Shown: positions 637-15,484 of the stretch, one piece after another
Layout of the letters: each line of letters opens with the position of its first letter
How positions within the stretch are numbered: position 1 is the first letter of the stretch
Origin: an uncultured Candidatus Saccharibacteria bacterium
GTDB lineage: Bacteria > Patescibacteriota > Minisyncoccia > Sungbacterales > JACQCQ01
DNA length: 16,160 bases
Direction: 5' to 3'
Assembly: GCA_964428455.1 (NCBI GenBank)
Contig: CAYRYI010000007.1
Span: 1 to 16,160, forward strand
The notes under the pieces: model-generated
The model's input: only the letters and a program-made list of their open reading frames with translations
What the model was told of the DNA's origin: nothing
The model's database searches: none
Position numbers and translations under genes: made by a program

Positions 637-2181
637 ATGGAAGAACTTATTCGGCTGCCCCTGGCTGTCAGCATCGGGGCGTTGCTCTTGCTTGGCATTG
701 GCGCGGGCTTGGGCTATGTATTGCGCCAACTTATCTCGCGCCAGCGCGTCAATTCAATAGAGCTCCGCACGCAAAAACTCATCGAGGACGCGAAGGTCGA
801 GGCCAAAGAGATTTTAGTTGAAGCCAAAACCGGAGCCGTAAAAATCCTAGAGGAGGCAAAAAAGGAAGAAAAAAATCGCGAGCAGGAGATTAAGCGGCTC
901 CAGGACCGATTGGAAAATCGCGAGGGTCTTTTGGACCAAAAATTGCTGGATATCGAAACTCGCGAAAAAGACGTTGAGGCGCGCATTGAAAAAATCAAGA
1001 CGGTAAAAACCGAACTTGACGAAGCGCGGGCAAGAATCGAAAAGGAGCTTGAGCGCGTCGCCGGGCTCACAAAAGAAAGCGCCATTGAAGAACTCACGAA
1101 AACCATCGAGAAGGACCATGGGGAGACTCTGATGCAGCGCATCCGCAAACTTGAAACCTCGGGCCTTGATGAGTTGGAGCGGCGAGCTAAACAGATTCTC
1201 GCCACCATCATCCAGCGGGTTTCCACGCCCACCGTCTCGGAGGTAACAACCACAACCGTCCAGATCCCCAGCGATGAAATCAAGGGCAAGATCATCGGCC
1301 GCGAAGGCCGCAACATCCGGACGCTCGAGCGGGCTGCGGGAGTTGAGATCATCGTGGACGACACGCCGGGCGCTATTGTGATCTCGGCCTTTGATCCGGT
1401 GCGCCGGCACATCGCCAAAAACGCTCTGGAGCAGTTGATCGCCGACGGCCGAATTCAACCCGCGCGCATCGAGGAGGTCGTCGAAAAAGTTAGACAGGAC
1501 ATCGAGAGGCAGATCAAAGCCGCCGGCGAGGCCGCGGCCTTTGAGGTCGGCGTTTTTGACCTTGATCCGCGGCTGGTGTCGCTTCTGGGACGCTTGAAAT
1601 TCAGAACCTCATACGGCCAAAACGTGCTGGTGCATTCGATCGAAATGGCGCATATCGCCGGAATGCTCGCGGAAGAACTCGGCGGAGATGTAGTCATCGC
1701 CAAAAAGGGCGCCGTGCTTCACGACATCGGCAAGGCTGTGGATCATGAGGTGCAGGGAACGCACGTCGAGATCGGCCGCCGGATTCTGCAAAAATTCGGC
1801 GTGGACAATCGCATAATTCAGGCGATGCAGTCGCATCACGAGGAGTATCCGTATGAAACGCTTGAATCAATCTTGGTGCAGGTGGCGGATGTAATTTCGG
1901 CGGGGCGCCCGGGAGCGCGGCGCGATTCGGTGGAAAATTATCTGAAGCGGCTGCAGGATTTGGAGGCAATTGCGAATTCGTTCGAGGGCGTGGAAAAATC
2001 CTACGCAATTCAGGCCGGGCGCGAGATCCGCATCTTTGTTACGCCCGAAAAAATGAGCGACCTGGAGGCGCGGGAACTGGCGCGAAGCGTGGCGCATAAA
2101 GTTGAGAGTGAATTGAAATACCCCGGGGAAATTAAAGTGAACGTCATTCGCGAAACGCGCGCGATTGAATACGCGCGGTAA
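637..2181 (+). CDS. rny: Ribonuclease Y (N-terminal TM helix, coiled coil, KH domain, HD domain)
   Basis: 514 aa. N-terminal hydrophobic helix MEELIRLPLAVSIGALLLLGIGAGLGYVL, a charged coiled coil, and the KH motif GKIIGREGRNIRTLERAAGVEIIVDD. Also the HD motif HSIEMAHIAGMLAEE...LHDIGKA...H. This is the classic RNase Y architecture. Confidence 0.9.
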   Translation: MEELIRLPLAVSIGALLLLGIGAGLGYVLRQLISRQRVNSIELRTQKLIEDAKVEAKEILVEAKTGAVKILEEAKKEEKNREQEIKRLQDRLENREGLLDQKLLDIETREKDVEARIEKIKTVKTELDEARARIEKELERVAGLTKESAIEELTKTIEKDHGETLMQRIRKLETSGLDELERRAKQILATIIQRVSTPTVSEVTTTTVQIPSDEIKGKIIGREGRNIRTLERAAGVEIIVDDTPGAIVISAFDPVRRHIAKNALEQLIADGRIQPARIEEVVEKVRQDIERQIKAAGEAAAFEVGVFDLDPRLVSLLGRLKFRTSYGQNVLVHSIEMAHIAGMLAEELGGDVVIAKKGAVLHDIGKAVDHEVQGTHVEIGRRILQKFGVDNRIIQAMQSHHEEYPYETLESILVQVADVISAGRPGARRDSVENYLKRLQDLEAIANSFEGVEKSYAIQAGREIRIFVTPEKMSDLEARELARSVAHKVESELKYPGEIKVNVIRETRAIEYAR

Positions 2182-12318: not shown

Positions 12319-12352
12319 CACCCCGACACGCGCGTGTCGGGGTGATTTTCTG
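12319..12352. terminator. Rho-independent terminator after the GH-like gene
   Basis: Perfect palindrome CACCCCGACACGCGCGTGTCGGGGTG followed by ATTTTCTGTT. Confidence 0.7.
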
Positions 12353-12550: not shown

Positions 12551-12646
12551 TGATAAAAGTCGGAAAATTCCGGTCGGGGGGCCGATCCGTCAGCTGACGG
12601 AGAACCTAGTCTGTATGCTTCTTCGCCCCGTTAGAAATCGAGTTAA

Positions 12647-12717
12647 TCGGGCTGCTGGGAATCGAACCCAGTCTGCATGCTCCCAAAGCATGTGTACTGC
12701 CGGTATACTACAGCCCG
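12647..12717 (-). tRNA. tRNA-Pro(UGG)
   Basis: CGGGCTG-TA-GTAT-ACCGGCA-GTAC-A-CATGC-TTTGGGA-GCATG-CAGA-CTGGG-TTCGATT-CCCAG-CAGCCCG-A. C1:G72, G37, anticodon UGG. No encoded CCA. Confidence 0.85.
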
Positions 12718-12822: not shown

Positions 12823-13212
12823 CTAGACGCCGCGCTGGTCCCAAACGGCGTTTTCGATATGGTCAATATGCTTGACTTTGAGCTCGCTGTCGAGGGTTAC
12901 GGAAATCACATCTATCTGCCATTCAACATCAGGATCAATTCTCTCTCTCACAAGATAGAGCTCGCACAACCCCTGCAGACGCCTGCGCTTTCGCCTGTCC
13001 ACCCGCTCCTCGGGACTGAATGCCTCCCTATGTGTCTCTATGCTGGTTTTTACCTCAACAAAATAGAGCTTTCCGCGCCTTTTCGCAACAATATCCAACT
13101 CCCCCATCGGCATCTCGTAGTTTTGGGCGACAACCGAGTAGCCCTTTGACTTAAGATGTTCCACGGCGGCCCTCTCCCCCGCCAGACCGATTTCCAAGTT
13201 TTTCAGAGCCAT
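12823..13212 (-). CDS. yraN: YraN-family (UPF0102) endonuclease
   Basis: GERAAVEHLKSKGYSVVAQNYEMPMGELDIVAKRRGKLYFVEVKT is the canonical YraN signature. 129 aa. Confidence 0.8.
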   Translation of the reverse strand: MALKNLEIGLAGERAAVEHLKSKGYSVVAQNYEMPMGELDIVAKRRGKLYFVEVKTSIETHREAFSPEERVDRRKRRRLQGLCELYLVRERIDPDVEWQIDVISVTLDSELKVKHIDHIENAVWDQRGV

Positions 13213-13265
13213 TTTTGAATCATATCCTGTTGTTCATGGTCGAACAACTGTTAATTCGCCCAATG

Positions 13266-13293
13266 TTGATATTTCTGTGAAACTGTTTATAAT
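13266..13293 (+). promoter_or_regulatory. sigma70-like promoter (TTGATA-16-TATAAT) for the LAGLIDADG gene
   Basis: Lies in the AT-rich intergenic region shared divergently with yraN. A hairpin AATGTTT-gtgatga-AACATT abuts the start codon. Confidence 0.5.
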
Positions 13294-13334
13294 GTTAATT
13301 GGTGTAACAATATCAATGTTTGTGATGAAACATT

Positions 13335-13748
13335 ATGAGTAATAAGTCAGAATTTTACAGAGCGGTCAGAGATGAAACTTATCGTACCAGAGAAGAGATA
13401 CGAGATAGAATAACCGATGAATACATCCTCGGGTTATTCGAGGGAGAAGGCTGTTTTGGGAACATGCGTGACGGCAGAGGAAACCAGGTGCCAGCGTTCA
13501 TGCTAAAGATGCATGTACGAGATAAGGAGCTTATTGAGGGCATAAGGGATTATTTAGGAGTGCCCGACAGAGTCTACGAATATAAGCACGGCGGTAGGCA
13601 TTATGCCCTACTTCAGATCAGAGACATTGGGACACTGAAAAATAAGATCGTACCAATCTTTCATACCAAGCTTCTTGGTCATAAAGGTACACAGTTGGAG
13701 GCGTGGTTAAAAAAATATCCGTACCTTAGGGGTCTACATCAAAAGTGA
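13335..13748 (+). CDS. Free-standing single-motif LAGLIDADG homing endonuclease (I-CreI-like size)
   Basis: 137 aa. ILGLFEGEGCF is the LAGLIDADG motif and ...KIVPIFHTKLLGHKGTQLEAWL is the typical C-terminal region. The gene is strongly AT-rich relative to its neighbours and is not embedded in any recognisable intron or intein. Confidence 0.75.
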   Translation: MSNKSEFYRAVRDETYRTREEIRDRITDEYILGLFEGEGCFGNMRDGRGNQVPAFMLKMHVRDKELIEGIRDYLGVPDRVYEYKHGGRHYALLQIRDIGTLKNKIVPIFHTKLLGHKGTQLEAWLKKYPYLRGLHQK

Positions 13749-13785
13749 GTAAATAAGCCAAAAAATCGTGTTTCATGACAAACAT

Positions 13786-13821
13786 CTAAAGGACATTCCG
13801 TTTAGACTGAATGTCCTTTAG
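13786..13821. terminator. Perfect 13-bp-stem hairpin between convergent HE gene and tRNA cluster
   Basis: CTAAAGGACATTC-cgtttagact-GAATGTCCTTTAG. Likely a bidirectional terminator. Confidence 0.55.
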
Positions 13822-13900
13822 ATATGTCCTATATAAATAGAGCTGGGAAGTGGGTAACGAAGGGATCGAACCTTCGGCCTCTGTCGTGTGAAGACAGCGC

Positions 13901-13927
13901 TCTGCTTCACCCTCCCACCTTTTTAGT
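13901..13927. repeat. Inverted repeat arm (partner at 14171-14191) forming a ~20-bp helix in the - strand transcript
   Basis: The + strand sequence ACTAAAGGTGGGAGGGTAAGC at 14171-14191 is the reverse complement of CACCCTCCCACCTTTTTAGT at 13908-13927, with small bulges. Confidence 0.6.
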
Positions 13928-13981
13928 GGACGCCTCTGGGACCCAACCAGCAATCTTCGTAACTTACCCCGTTAGGTTTAT

Positions 13982-14020
13982 TGGTGGGCGCAGTAGGTAT
14001 CGAACCTACGACCTTTGCAA
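13982..14020 (-). tRNA. tRNA-Glu(UUC) 3' half (exon 2, CCA encoded)
   Basis: T-TGCAA-AGGTC-GTAGG-TTCGATA-CCTAC-TGCGCCC-A-CCA. It completes the anticodon stem and acceptor stem of the 5' half at 14133-14168. Confidence 0.65.
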
Positions 14021-14132
14021 TGCTTGCCCCGTTAGATCTAAATATGGGCAGTACAGGATTTGAACCTGTGACCCCCGCAATGTGAATGCAGTGCTCTACC
14101 ACTGAGCTAACTGCCCATGAGATCTAATAGGG
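14021..14132 (-). other. 112-nt intron-like insert in the tRNA-Glu anticodon loop, consisting of tRNA-Val flanked by a 13-bp helix
   Basis: The 5' flank is CCCTATTAGATCTCAT and the 3' flank is TATTTAGATCTAACGGGGCAAGCA. CCCTATTAGATCT pairs with AGATCTAACGGGG at 12 of 13 positions. The junction falls at loop position 37/38, or 35/36 given the duplicated CA. Confidence 0.55.
14045..14116 (-). tRNA. tRNA-Val(CAC), complete, embedded inside the tRNA-Glu gene
   Basis: GGGCAGT-TA-GCTC-AGTGGTA-GAGC-A-CTGCA-TTCACAT-TGCGG-GGGTC-ACAGG-TTCAAAT-CCTGT-ACTGCCC-A. All four stems pair and the anticodon is CAC. Confidence 0.8.
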
Positions 14133-14168
14133 TGAAAATGCAACGCTCTACCACTGAGCTATGCGCCC
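14133..14168 (-). tRNA. tRNA-Glu(UUC) 5' half (exon 1)
   Basis: GGGCGCA-TA-GCTC-AGTGGTA-GAGC-G-TTGCA-TTTTCA. The acceptor 5' strand is exactly complementary to TGCGCCC in the 3' half. Confidence 0.65.
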
Positions 14169-14274
14169 TTGACTAAAGGTGGGAGGGTAAGCTGAGCTAG
14201 TCACCCTTATAAATCATACTTAGGCTATTGTAGCCAATATGAATTACCGAGACAAATTAAGCTTATCCTAAATA

Positions 14275-14302
14275 TTGACTTTTAGATAAATATTGATATA
14301 AT
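14275..14302 (+). promoter_or_regulatory. sigma70 promoter (TTGACT-16-TATAAT) for the SPFH operon
   Basis: Both hexamers are consensus-like. It lies 60-80 nt upstream of the SD GAAGGAGGA and ATG at 14381. Confidence 0.55.
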
Positions 14303-14380
14303 AGTGTTCATTGGATGGTTCGGTCGCAAACGCGGCCTTTGACATATAAATCAACCCACCAACTGAAGGAGGATCAACCA

Positions 14381-15484
14381 ATGAGAAGGCATCTTCGGCT
14401 GTACTATCCGTTCTACGCCACGGCCTTGATCGTCCTCGCATTTCTCCCGGGGTTCCTCGGGATCGGATGGGGGGAGATCCTAGGCTGGATGTCCCCCGAT
14501 GACCCTATCTTTTTCGGAATGGTAACACTCGGGGTCATCTCATTCATCGGGTTCCTGGTGATTCCCGCCGCATTCAGGTACGGCGCAATCGTGATCGTGC
14601 CGCCCATGAGCGCGGGGCTCGTCACTCATCTGGGGAAGCCGGCATGGCTTATCGCCAATGCCGATCTTCATCGGTACGAGTGGCTAAAGGGGCCGGAGTT
14701 CTTGCGGCGAATTGCCGGAGGACTCCGTATCGTCGGGATCCCCCGAATGCACAAGCTTCTCACCGTCAAGGTGACGAAGCTTGCCACGGTAGTGGAGAGG
14801 ACAGACGGCAATCTGACCACCTTCGAGCTCCAATTCGGCGCGCCGGAGGACGTGAAGTTCGTGTCACTGCGGGACCAGGTCCTGCAACTGGTCTTTTCTG
14901 ACCCGATCACCGCAAATGGCATTAGGCTAAAGATCTCGATGCGGGTTTTCTATCGCATCGACGACCCCAGGAAATTCTTCCTGGCGGCCGAGGACTGGAC
15001 GCGGATCGTGGTGGATCGGATCCGGCCGCTCGTGCGGCACATCGTAAGCTCGGAGACGTGGCCGGAGATCAACAAGCGTCGCACGGAACTCTCGGGCGGT
15101 ATCATGCGGGCGGTACAGGATCCAAGCCGTCCCATGCTTCGCGCAGGGGGTGTAGAAGACAATCGGTCCGTCGTTAAGTTCCTAATGCAGGAGTATGGCC
15201 TGATCATCCAGGCCTTCGAGTTCGGCGACATGCTCCCCGCCAAGTCCGACATCATCGAGGCGGGAGAACAGGCCTTCGAGGAAGCCCAGCGGATGCTGGG
15301 CGCCAGGGAGGTGGCTAAGTTCCTCCGCGACGAAAGCGCTGAAGAAGTAGCGGCGCGGCGCGAGGCCATGCGGCTCGCCATCGCGACGAAGGCCGCCGAG
15401 AACGTCAAGAATATCATCGTGGGCGGGCCCGTGCAGGAGATTTTCCAGCAGGTCTTTGGCCCAAGAGAGGAGCCAGGAAGATGA
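14381..15484 (+). CDS. SPFH/band-7 (stomatin/prohibitin-like) membrane protein
   Basis: Two N-terminal TM helices, then an SPFH-like core (...VTHLGKPAWL...TTFELQFGAPEDVKFVSLRDQVL...RVFYRIDDPRKFF...). The start is taken at the ATG at 14381, which has a strong SD; the ORF track begins further upstream. Confidence 0.6.
   Translation: MRRHLRLYYPFYATALIVLAFLPGFLGIGWGEILGWMSPDDPIFFGMVTLGVISFIGFLVIPAAFRYGAIVIVPPMSAGLVTHLGKPAWLIANADLHRYEWLKGPEFLRRIAGGLRIVGIPRMHKLLTVKVTKLATVVERTDGNLTTFELQFGAPEDVKFVSLRDQVLQLVFSDPITANGIRLKISMRVFYRIDDPRKFFLAAEDWTRIVVDRIRPLVRHIVSSETWPEINKRRTELSGGIMRAVQDPSRPMLRAGGVEDNRSVVKFLMQEYGLIIQAFEFGDMLPAKSDIIEAGEQAFEEAQRMLGAREVAKFLRDESAEEVAARREAMRLAIATKAAENVKNIIVGGPVQEIFQQVFGPREEPGR

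Follow-up and report, generated by a model that had tools for sequence, protein, structure and literature searches.

Nested tRNA-Val genes in a Patescibacteria genome, most probably built by serial insertion of small tRNA-carrying cassettes

The stretch of bacterial DNA analysed here (contig CAYRYI010000007.1, 16,160 nucleotides (nt), hereafter the window) carries on its minus strand, at positions 13851–14206, a nest of transfer RNA (tRNA) genes in which a complete tRNA-Val(CAC) lies within the halves of a second tRNA and both lie within the D-loop of a third. The locus was most probably built by the serial insertion of tRNA-carrying replacement cassettes that resemble miniature inverted-repeat transposable elements (MITEs). 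The nested layout had been described in an initial annotation made from the sequence alone, and it is borne out by the arrangement of the sequence, by folding and by its recurrence at 99.7–100% identity in nine contigs from different samples and archives, which makes an assembly artefact very unlikely. The window sequence, which stems from the Rifle groundwater metagenomes, is also deposited as LCQT01000024.1 of assembly GCA_001004285.1. The sole polymorphism among the Rifle contigs in a 376-nt region, at position 14076 (G in the window, A in six others), turns U27.G41 of the inner anticodon stem into U27-A41 and preserves the structure. The tRNA halves co-fold, as the annotation had anticipated: the minimum-free-energy fold of 368 nt reproduces the nesting with a z-score of −6.3, and 0 of 100 shuffles fold as well. 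The annotation had also looked to tRNA finders with intron models for a call of the interrupted genes; on the raw sequence ARAGORN, intron models included, calls the inner gene only, and it is on hand-made splices that it calls tRNA-Glu(ttc) and tRNA-Val(cac). Rfam recognizes the inner gene plus, as a weak partial match, the 3' piece of the outer one.

Read along the minus strand, the outer tRNA, the outer helix, the middle tRNA, the inner helix and the inner tRNA are nested in that order. The outer, resident tRNA-Val(CAC) survives as a 5' fragment comprising nt 1–15 (GGGTGACTAGCTCAG, 14192–14206) and a 3' fragment that runs from the AGAGC of the D-stem to the discriminator base (13851–13903; partial Rfam tRNA match of 29.2 bits). 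Between the two lies a 288-nt insertion (13904–14191) that replaces the TGGT of the D-loop and is a composite cassette with the nest already inside. Its 5' inverted-repeat arm, CTTA/CCCTCCCACCTTT (14175–14191), pairs with its 3' arm, AAAGGTGGGAGGG/TGAAG (13905–13922), and the resulting outer helix (CTTACCCTCCCACCTTT, 14191–14175, against AAAGGTGGGAGGGTGAAG, 13922–13905) comprises 14 perfect pairs, a one-base bulge and then 3 pairs. The middle tRNA consists of a 5' half (14133–14168), delimited with ARAGORN on the hand-spliced sequence, and a 3' half (CAT-TGCAA...TGCGCCC-A-CCA, 13982–14022) in which the CCA is encoded; the halves pair at 7/7 acceptor-stem, 5/5 anticodon-stem and 5/5 T-stem positions. 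They are separated after TTCA (nt 35/36) by the inner cassette (14023–14132), which is recognized by the arms of a repeat family and made up of the arm CCCTATTAGATCT, a spacer, tRNA-Val(CAC), a further spacer, the arm AGATCTAACGGGG and a terminal CAAG. The annotation had the inner tRNA-Val(CAC) bracketed by a 13-bp helix; the bracketing stands, but the 13 positions of this helix (CCCTATTAGATCT, 14132–14120, against AGATCTAACGGGG, 14039–14027) include one U.G pair and one A x C mismatch. The innermost tRNA-Val(CAC) (14045–14116; called by ARAGORN, Rfam tRNA score 71.7 bits) is the sole intact gene of the nest. To the layers already described can be added a fourth, partial one (13927–13976), in which a second copy of the 3' arm (CCTAACGGGGTAAG) is followed by a decayed tRNA 3' half, as comparison with 14039–13982 reveals, and which is without a 5' partner. 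An extra 3'-arm copy of the same kind occurs in L171 and in the tRNA-less repeats L145, L150, L152 and L163, and the window as a whole holds three copies of the 3' arm. Some 20 nt upstream of the outer tRNA 5' end, a promoter-like site (TTGTCT-17-TACAAT, 14227–14255, minus strand) is the sole candidate detected for the whole nest in a consensus scan; it lies in a sequence block that is kept at the orthologous locus L130 and probably serves as the promoter.

That orthologous locus supplies the uninterrupted allele. L130, a 40.9-kb groundwater contig found through its Band_7 homolog, has the gene order of the window (UPF0102, LAGLIDADG, tRNA, Band_7), with protein identities of 83% for Band_7, 91% for LAGLIDADG and 86% for UPF0102, and in place of the nest it carries one uninterrupted tRNA-Val(CAC) (L130:2514–2586, GGGTGACTAGCTCAGTGGTAGAGCGCTGTCTTCACACGACAGAGGTCGAAGGTTCGATCCCTTCGTTACCCA). 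When positions 14191–13904 (288 nt) are removed from the window, the two intergenic regions become collinear over their full length, at 85% identity, and the outer tRNA differs from that of L130 by 1 nt and the missing TGGT; its 5' fragment equals the first 15 nt of the L130 gene and its 3' fragment matches at 52 of 53 nt. This collinearity establishes that the outer tRNA is a resident gene interrupted by an insertion at the DNA level. Comparison of the empty site, GCTCAG/TGGT/AGAGC, with the filled one further shows that TGGT (G18-G19) was replaced and not duplicated, which puts the outer D-loop beyond rescue by any RNA excision. A source for the 288-nt insertion was sought in 240 fetched loci, the best of which matched it at only 76% identity.

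The middle tRNA had been read as a tRNA-Glu(UUC), a reading that depends on where the splice is drawn: the UUC anticodon arises only when CAAGCA is discarded. If the ends of the inner cassette are instead set by the repeat family (CAAG), the middle tRNA reads TTGCA-tt-TTCA/CAT-TGCAA, with CAC retained in the loop. Once the cassette is taken out, it shows 87% identity to an intact tRNA-Val(CAC) of the same type in L257 (GGGCGGC...TTGCA TTCACAT TGCAA), from which it differs by two extra T in the loop, and even with these best-supported boundaries the loop still has 9 nt. Judged by its sequence, the middle tRNA is a Val(CAC) pseudogene and not a tRNA-Glu. The homologous loci in which the annotation had hoped to find an uninterrupted tRNA-Glu thus yielded an uninterrupted Val(CAC) for the outer tRNA (L130), whereas the counterpart of the middle tRNA in the relative L257 is Val. 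Relatives found through their LAGLIDADG homologs have multi-layer nests at their own tRNA-Val loci. At one of these, L253, the arm core of the window's outer cassette (CCCTCCCACCTTTTT and AAAAGGTGGGAGGG) bounds a tRNA-Val, and the junction CTGCATTTTCA/CCCTCCCACCTTTTT-Val-AAAAGGTGGGAGGG/CAAGCATTGCAG combines the window's middle-tRNA junction with its outer helix.

Nests of this kind are widespread. A scan of species-representative genomes for two D-arms 20–50 nt apart, a distance too short for tandem genes, returned at least 119 loci; among the 80 listed, 44 are labelled Candidate Phyla Radiation (CPR) or Patescibacteria, and the rest include Ignavibacteriota, Omnitrophota and Chloroflexota. 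Parsing and the counts of anticodons, stems and helices given below cover the nests among the matches listed, 73 of 125 of which parse as nests, with 46 passing strict criteria. Insertion points fall at nt 35/36 before TAA (Thr, Met-type CAT and Ile genes), at 37/38 in several Val genes, in the D-loop (the window and the outer layers of L105 and L124) and in the T-loop (L251, L257 and a tRNA-Pro remnant of the window), and triple nests occur in L024, L047 and L105. The functional tRNA-Val at the same locus differs between related species, and arrangements of X in Y and Y in X are both seen (L251 versus L257; L040 versus L129), so that tRNA genes can be exchanged horizontally without any change of chromosomal position.

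Outer and inner copies share their anticodon. They are identical at nt 34–35 in 33 of the 46 strict nests, whereas 2000 permutation trials gave a mean of 7.2 and never more than 17, and the exceptions inspected are mostly displaced or decayed loops (the Phe family, the window and L020) or cases in which the anticodon differs but the amino acid does not (L124). Identical acceptor stems, in turn, are found between the two copies in only 3 of the 46, which argues that the inner gene is not a local duplicate. What is found is therefore the pattern of tRNA complementation: an insertion in a tRNA gene that is not reconstituted, together with a cargo tRNA of the same isotype. The outer copies also decay. 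In 56 nests, identified by criteria that favour neither type of transition, inner stems contain 917 Watson-Crick pairs among 952 positions (27 G:T, 0 A:C, 8 other) and outer stems 801 among 952 (74 G:T, 37 A:C, 40 other), and positions that cannot pair make up 8% of outer stems versus 0.8% of inner ones. This decay appears in every shell family, those with clean junctions included, and the G:T excess of the outer stems over the inner baseline about equals their A:C count, which fits neutral decay.

The helices that enclose the cargo behave likewise. RNA helices under selection tolerate G.U and not A.C, and a count over 77 distinct nests, with G:T and A:C scored at equal penalties, gave 36 G:T against 34 A:C internal mismatches on the tRNA-sense strand of the shell helices (p = 0.9), without a wobble bias of the RNA type. 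Relative to the tRNAs, the end motifs CCCGCCTGCCAAAGC and CCTGCCCGCCAT are found in both orientations, and in L251 the two arms come from different families and cannot pair. On inspection of the window and the 46 strict nests, the junctions lie directly opposite each other at the base of one continuous helix.

Some of the nests are of interest in their own right. Nests, or loci with a 5' fragment followed by a full tRNA, occur outside the CPR in L016, L030, L090, L101 and L102 (Ignavibacteriota where labelled; L101 and L102 carry no label), in L034 (Omnitrophota) and L110 (unlabelled), and in L059 (Chloroflexi) and L109, L114 and L119 (unlabelled). These non-CPR nests use arm sequences of their own, e.g. 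TCCCGATAATTTC and GAAATTATCGGGA, and in L059-type loci the break comes after the anticodon arm. The tRNA-Phe(GAA) nests L036, L053, L055, L071, L078 and L083 have received two insertions each: the tRNA cassette stands right after the 5' anticodon-stem strand and is followed by the loop CTGAAAA, a cargo-less hairpin (TTTTACCCCG...CGGGG) and the 3' strand.

The cassette ends derive from dispersed repeats. The end motifs that recur in the genome nests are CCCCGTTAGAT...ATCTAACGGGG, often with TTCA and CAAG outside; CCCGCCTGCC...GGCGGGCAGG, together with its DNA-level inversion CCTGCCCGCC...GGCAGGCGGG; CCCCGYACC...GGTRCGGGG; and CCCCCACACC.../CCCTCCCACC... The inner arms of the window are a CG-to-TA mutated form of the CCCCGTTAGAT...ATCTAACGGGG(CAAG) repeat of CPR nests. 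A metagenome scan for the pattern CCCCGTTAGA-N70-100-TCTAACGGGGYAA returned at least 120 loci, and among the matches listed 125 of 131 lack a tRNA. These are repeats of 100–130 nt with internal hairpins, mostly intergenic and matching no RNA family in Rfam; some contigs hold several copies (up to four, in L238), some of them in tandem (L173), and the TTCA...CAAG ends are found away from tRNAs as well. All 6 of the matches listed that do have a tRNA between the arms sit within the halves of a cognate tRNA (Pro in Pro, Val in Val). The sequence TTCA/core/CAAG replaces a CA, and the reverse form CTTG/core/TGAA replaces a TG. The cassettes thus display terminal inverted repeats (arms of 13 and 17 nt), small size (110 and 288 nt, with tRNA sequence as their only feature), no transposase gene and many dispersed copies that share terminal repeats. 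A tRNA-carrying element resembling a MITE or a short interspersed element, inserting successively into tRNA genes, was one of the explanations offered at the outset, and the empty site and the repeat family make it the best supported of them; degenerate debris, another, describes the present state of the outer layers.

Several copies of these repeats lie in unusual settings. In L238, four tRNA-less CCCCGTTAGA...TCTAACGGGG copies (positions 788, 5168, 8380 and 14107) lie between the genes of a Liv-type amino-acid ABC transporter operon, near a B12-radical-SAM gene; the gene content of this contig looks non-CPR, and the repeat family may extend beyond the CPR. In the tandem arrays of L173 and L213, the 3' arm of a unit pairs perfectly with the 5' arm of its successor to give the hairpin ATTTCTAACGGGG-CAAG-CCCCGTTAGAAAT, an arrangement which suggests that the basic repeat unit may be a hairpin whose loop accepts insertions. 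L130 carries at 1815–1838 (minus strand), between its UPF0102 and LAGLIDADG genes, a solo hairpin (CCTGCCTGCTGGCAGGCGGGG) with the CCTGCC/GGCAGGCGGG motif of another cassette family and without cargo.

Serial insertion would have started from one resident tRNA-Val(CAC), transcribed under a promoter of its own. The resident D-loop would then have received a small non-autonomous cassette with inverted-repeat ends and its own tRNA-Val(CAC), and this cassette would itself have been pre-built, as a Val(CAC) gene hit at nt 35/36 by a cassette of the CCCCGTTAGA/TCTAACGGGG family that carried another Val(CAC). Each insertion would kill the gene it enters and leave only the innermost copy at work. The cargo tRNA, of the same codon and in the same orientation, would be transcribed from the host promoter and take over; cells would survive only where the cargo matches the destroyed gene, and the outer halves would then decay as pseudogenes. 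Survival with matching cargo alone would lead outer and inner copies to share their anticodon. Cotranscription of the cargo from the host promoter is in our judgement probable, as is the origin of the same-anticodon rule in selection for complementation.

A number of observations weigh against this reading or constrain it. No target-site duplication separates the empty site of L130 from the filled one, which means that the cassettes are not classical DDE-type MITEs and rules out classical transposition with target duplication; nor do the tetranucleotides flanking the tRNA-less copies co-vary, and no direct repeat that could serve as a common core stands at the insertion junctions. Repeat pairs 200–5000 nt apart in 1.8 Mb of fetched loci revealed neither an enzyme nor an autonomous copy bounded by these inverted repeats, and no enzyme was found among the genes neighbouring the nests. 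No transposase, integrase or homing endonuclease travels with the cassettes: clustering of 924 open reading frames (ORFs) within 2.5 kb of nests gave mainly housekeeping-looking families, none of which reached more than 9 loci; in 5 loci a small GIY-YIG-like ORF, assigned by sequence motif only, lies near the nest; and no integrase lies within a cassette, an integrase-like ORF cluster being confined to 6 loci, of which at least one is non-CPR. Among the matches listed, moreover, tRNA cassettes are seen only inside cognate tRNA genes and never at neutral sites, although random transposition with survivorship predicts copies there; this suggests either that hairpin loops are targeted or that whole nested alleles spread through homologous recombination once DNA has been taken up. 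In several families removal of the cassette leaves an anticodon loop of exactly 7 nt, as with a clean intron, and at the window itself the middle and outer stems are still perfectly paired, with no stem decay yet visible. Two known kinds of element were considered as sources and rejected. GTTAGAT/ATCTAAC fits the core and inverse-core consensus of an integron attC site, but the order is reversed relative to attC and the sequences are absent from the other shell families. Phage origin was tried by blastn against 50,697 phage records, which matched the inner tRNA only, at 78–84% identity, and two pattern scans of viral contigs had no hit.

Two further explanations concern RNA. The cassettes could be new bacterial RNA introns in which the helix joins the splice sites and an endonuclease and a ligase (e.g. 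RtcB) remove the insert, so that outer and inner tRNA both mature. The whole unit on one strand behind one promoter-like site and its fold into nested cloverleaves (z = −6.3) would agree with this, and so would the exact 7-nt loops (TTCG/TAA, TTCA/TAA) that result in the Thr, Met and Ile families when CCC...GGG is removed, the break of several Val nests at 37/38, the canonical archaeal and eukaryal position, and the 5/5 outer anticodon-stem pairs kept in about half of the strict nests. Yet in the window the G18-G19 replaced relative to the ortholog is unrecoverable and the loop of the middle tRNA would remain at 9 nt; the outer stems decay even in the clean families, the helices lack wobble bias, are inverted at the DNA level and in L251 do not pair at all, and tRNA-less intergenic repeats are bounded by the same arms. 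An intron, finally, has no reason to bring a tRNA with its host's own anticodon. Known splicing architectures fare no better. A bulge-helix-bulge consists of two 3-nt bulges on opposite strands with a 4-bp helix between them and a splice site in each. This geometry was ruled out by a hand check of the window and family members, in which the junctions stand opposite each other at one helix base and pairing of exon nt 30–33 or 32–35 with the 3' end of the intron fails, in the window as in the 46 strict nests; EndA and RtcB had no match among the ten window ORFs scanned. The annotation was right that this is not a group I intron: Rfam gives no group I match at the gathering score in the window or at E<=10 with permissive filters in 13500–14500, and excision would restore no complete tRNA, the outer one lacking TGGT and the middle one having a 9-nt loop. 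A split or permuted tRNA gene was likewise rejected, as an intact tRNA of the same anticodon lies between the halves and the outer copies decay. We therefore regard RNA introns as a highly improbable account of the cassettes, and the novel intron or trans-splicing arrangement that the annotation had put forward is not supported at this locus, where the comparison with L130 shows a DNA insertion, and is unlikely for the family. It would be a long shot, too, that the well-preserved nests (Thr, Met and Ile at 35/36; Val at 37/38) undergo helix-guided, protein-dependent RNA removal through which one gene yields two tRNAs. Were it true, it would represent a third kind of bacterial tRNA intron, of which the window would be a decayed relic, and a living case of mobile hairpin elements becoming tRNA introns at archaeal and eukaryotic positions.

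A different role for the RNA would be that of a functional scaffold, in which the outer halves and helices do not become tRNAs but are retained for aiding the folding, processing (e.g. by RNase III cuts) or regulation of the inner tRNA. The Thr nests L033, L039, L084 and L116 have outer acceptor stems that differ yet remain 7/7 paired while the outer anticodon stem is lost, a GC-rich clamp beside the inner tRNA could conceivably block mispairing with the similar outer halves, and the window and L251 share the junction block CAAGCATTGCAAAGGTCGTAGG exactly despite about 63% protein identity, a match that horizontal movement of cassettes would also produce. A plain gene nevertheless suffices in the relative L130, the outer stems decay overall, the helix mismatches show no RNA-type bias, the arms of L251 fail to pair, and remnants such as the window's tRNA-Pro lose a whole side; a scaffold is accordingly very improbable. 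Homing driven by the neighbouring LAGLIDADG gene would act on DNA: the enzyme would cut the D-arm of an intact tRNA-Val at GCTCAG/TGGT/AGAGC, and the cassette allele would repair or protect the site (collaborative homing). The single-domain LAGLIDADG ORF (Pfam 3.4e-8) stands some 100 nt away from the nest, a nest remnant is also found at the tRNA-Pro that flanks its gene pair on the opposite side, and the TGGT that was replaced forms the centre of the D-arm palindrome, a position that, speculatively, would suit a homodimeric LAGLIDADG cut. LAGLIDADG enzymes leave a 4-nt 3' overhang, and the four replaced bases match it. The same gene, however, equally adjoins the uninterrupted tRNA in L130, and its homologs (53–73% identity, five relatives) invariably stand in a divergent pair with a UPF0102 gene and have variable genes downstream, as a resident would behave; tblastn found no LAGLIDADG homolog near the 119 other nest loci listed, neighbourhood clustering gave no recurrent nuclease family except the GIY-YIG-like ORF, and the loss of TGGT is equally explained by the TG-replacement rule plus one substitution. 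Its presence beside the empty allele and its constant pairing with UPF0102 indicate that the LAGLIDADG gene is not part of the insertion, and the mobile or processing connection drawn in the annotation is not supported. We consider homing very unlikely, and return to the serial insertion of replacement cassettes as the explanation to be compared with known systems.

The closest parallel in logic is tRNA-dependent lysogeny in actinobacteriophages, in which a tRNA gene essential to the host is broken by an insertion and not reconstituted (Guerrero-Bustamante and Hatfull 2024, PMC10865867), and the same-anticodon rule of the nests follows the same logic. In that system the inserted element is an entire prophage, tens of kb long, with a tyrosine integrase and an att core of about 10 bp (PMC10865867), whereas the nest cassettes measure 110–290 nt, about 1/500 of that size, have a tRNA as their sole gene and lack both a direct-repeat core and an integrase. 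Unlike prophages, moreover, they lie within tRNA loops, so that the halves remain side by side and nest, and the scans of viral contigs yielded none of them. In form the cassettes resemble MITEs and palindromic intergenic repeats: the repeats are 100–130 nt long, with terminal inverted repeats of 10–20 bp, internal hairpins and no coding capacity, and occur in many copies per contig and intergenically within operons. Bacterial examples of such repeats are Correia/NEMIS, RUP, ERIC and REPINs. The cassettes differ from MITEs in having no target-site duplication, the empty site showing a 4-nt replacement, in that a subset holds complete tRNA genes within cognate tRNA loops, and in that no autonomous partner is known.

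Group I introns have been described in the tRNA genes of Patescibacteria, including at position 35/36 (Nakagawa et al. 2026, PMC13011429). The nests share with them the phylum, the anticodon loop and often exactly the 35/36 position (PMC13011429); the inner cassette, in contrast, is 110 nt long, mostly tRNA and without a catalytic core, and the nest junctions and decay argue for unspliced DNA insertions. That study makes no mention of nested tRNAs, and a survey of rRNA insertions in the CPR makes no mention of tRNAs (PMC11270868). Our search of the full-text literature found no description of nested tRNA genes in the CPR, although subscription journals lay outside its coverage and an earlier report is possible.

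Archaea offer a further point of comparison, as bulge-helix-bulge introns and split or tri-split tRNA genes occur in Nanoarchaeum and the Thermoproteales. Like these, the nests have interruptions at 37/38, in the D-loop and in other loops, sometimes several per gene, with GC-rich complementary sequences beside the halves and with related sequences in different interruptions, a sharing that suggests mobility. They differ in having no bulge-helix-bulge, in keeping the halves in cis around a whole tRNA, in that the interrupted copies are redundant and decaying, and in their bacterial host.

If serial insertion is correct, the tRNA genes of CPR bacteria, organisms with small genomes and supposedly minimal tRNA sets, are sites of repeated invasion and replacement, and an essential gene is open to a cassette of about 100 nt that brings the replacement with it, a logic earlier described for whole prophages. 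There is also a practical consequence: standard tRNA finders report the innermost gene only, and the halves risk being misread as introns, split genes or odd isoacceptors, as the false tRNA-Glu illustrates. The insertion points (D-loop, 35/36, 37/38 and T-loop) coincide with the positions of archaeal and eukaryal tRNA introns, and it is attractive to view the nests as a bacterial system in which to test whether tRNA introns began as mobile insertions.

The surrounding genes of the window encode RNase Y, YmdB, a TrmB-type regulator, a DUF4015 protein, UPF0102 (YraN-like), the single-domain LAGLIDADG protein and a Band_7 protein. This content, RNase Y and YmdB included, marks the organism as bacterial, and the named homologs of these genes come from CPR genomes. 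The UPF0102 gene, whose product has a YraN-like nuclease fold, and the LAGLIDADG gene form a divergent pair in the window (12823–13748), in L130 and in L251–L258, with tRNA-Pro and tRNA-Val nearby, and the pair is conserved in every relative examined, down to 53% identity. It is a resident chromosomal pair that happens to sit between two tRNA loci, and a stable chromosomal LAGLIDADG gene partnered with a gene of another nuclease family is unusual.

The second of these tRNA loci holds an older nest (12574–12717, minus strand) in which an intact tRNA-Pro(UGG) (12717–12647) is followed by a cassette 3' arm (ATTTCTAACGGGGCGAAG, 12638–12621) and a decayed Pro 3' half (12620–12574); the loss of the 5' side gives it the look of an old nest. 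The same arms bound intact Pro-in-Pro nests in L149, L240 and L248, and in L257 the 5' arm (CCCCGTTATCT) is kept just upstream of the tRNA-Pro. A perfect 16-nt palindrome (TCCGTCAGCTGACGGA, 12586–12601) occupies the T-loop of the decayed Pro half, and T-loop hairpin insertions are likewise present in the outer tRNA-Val copies of L251 and L257. Directly 3' of a tRNA-Gly(UCC), finally, stands a hairpin (CACCCCGACACG-CG-CGTGTCGGGGTG, 12319–12344, minus strand) in the CCCCG/CGGGG style of the cassette arms and without a T run; it could be an empty shell or a hairpin that serves in processing or termination.

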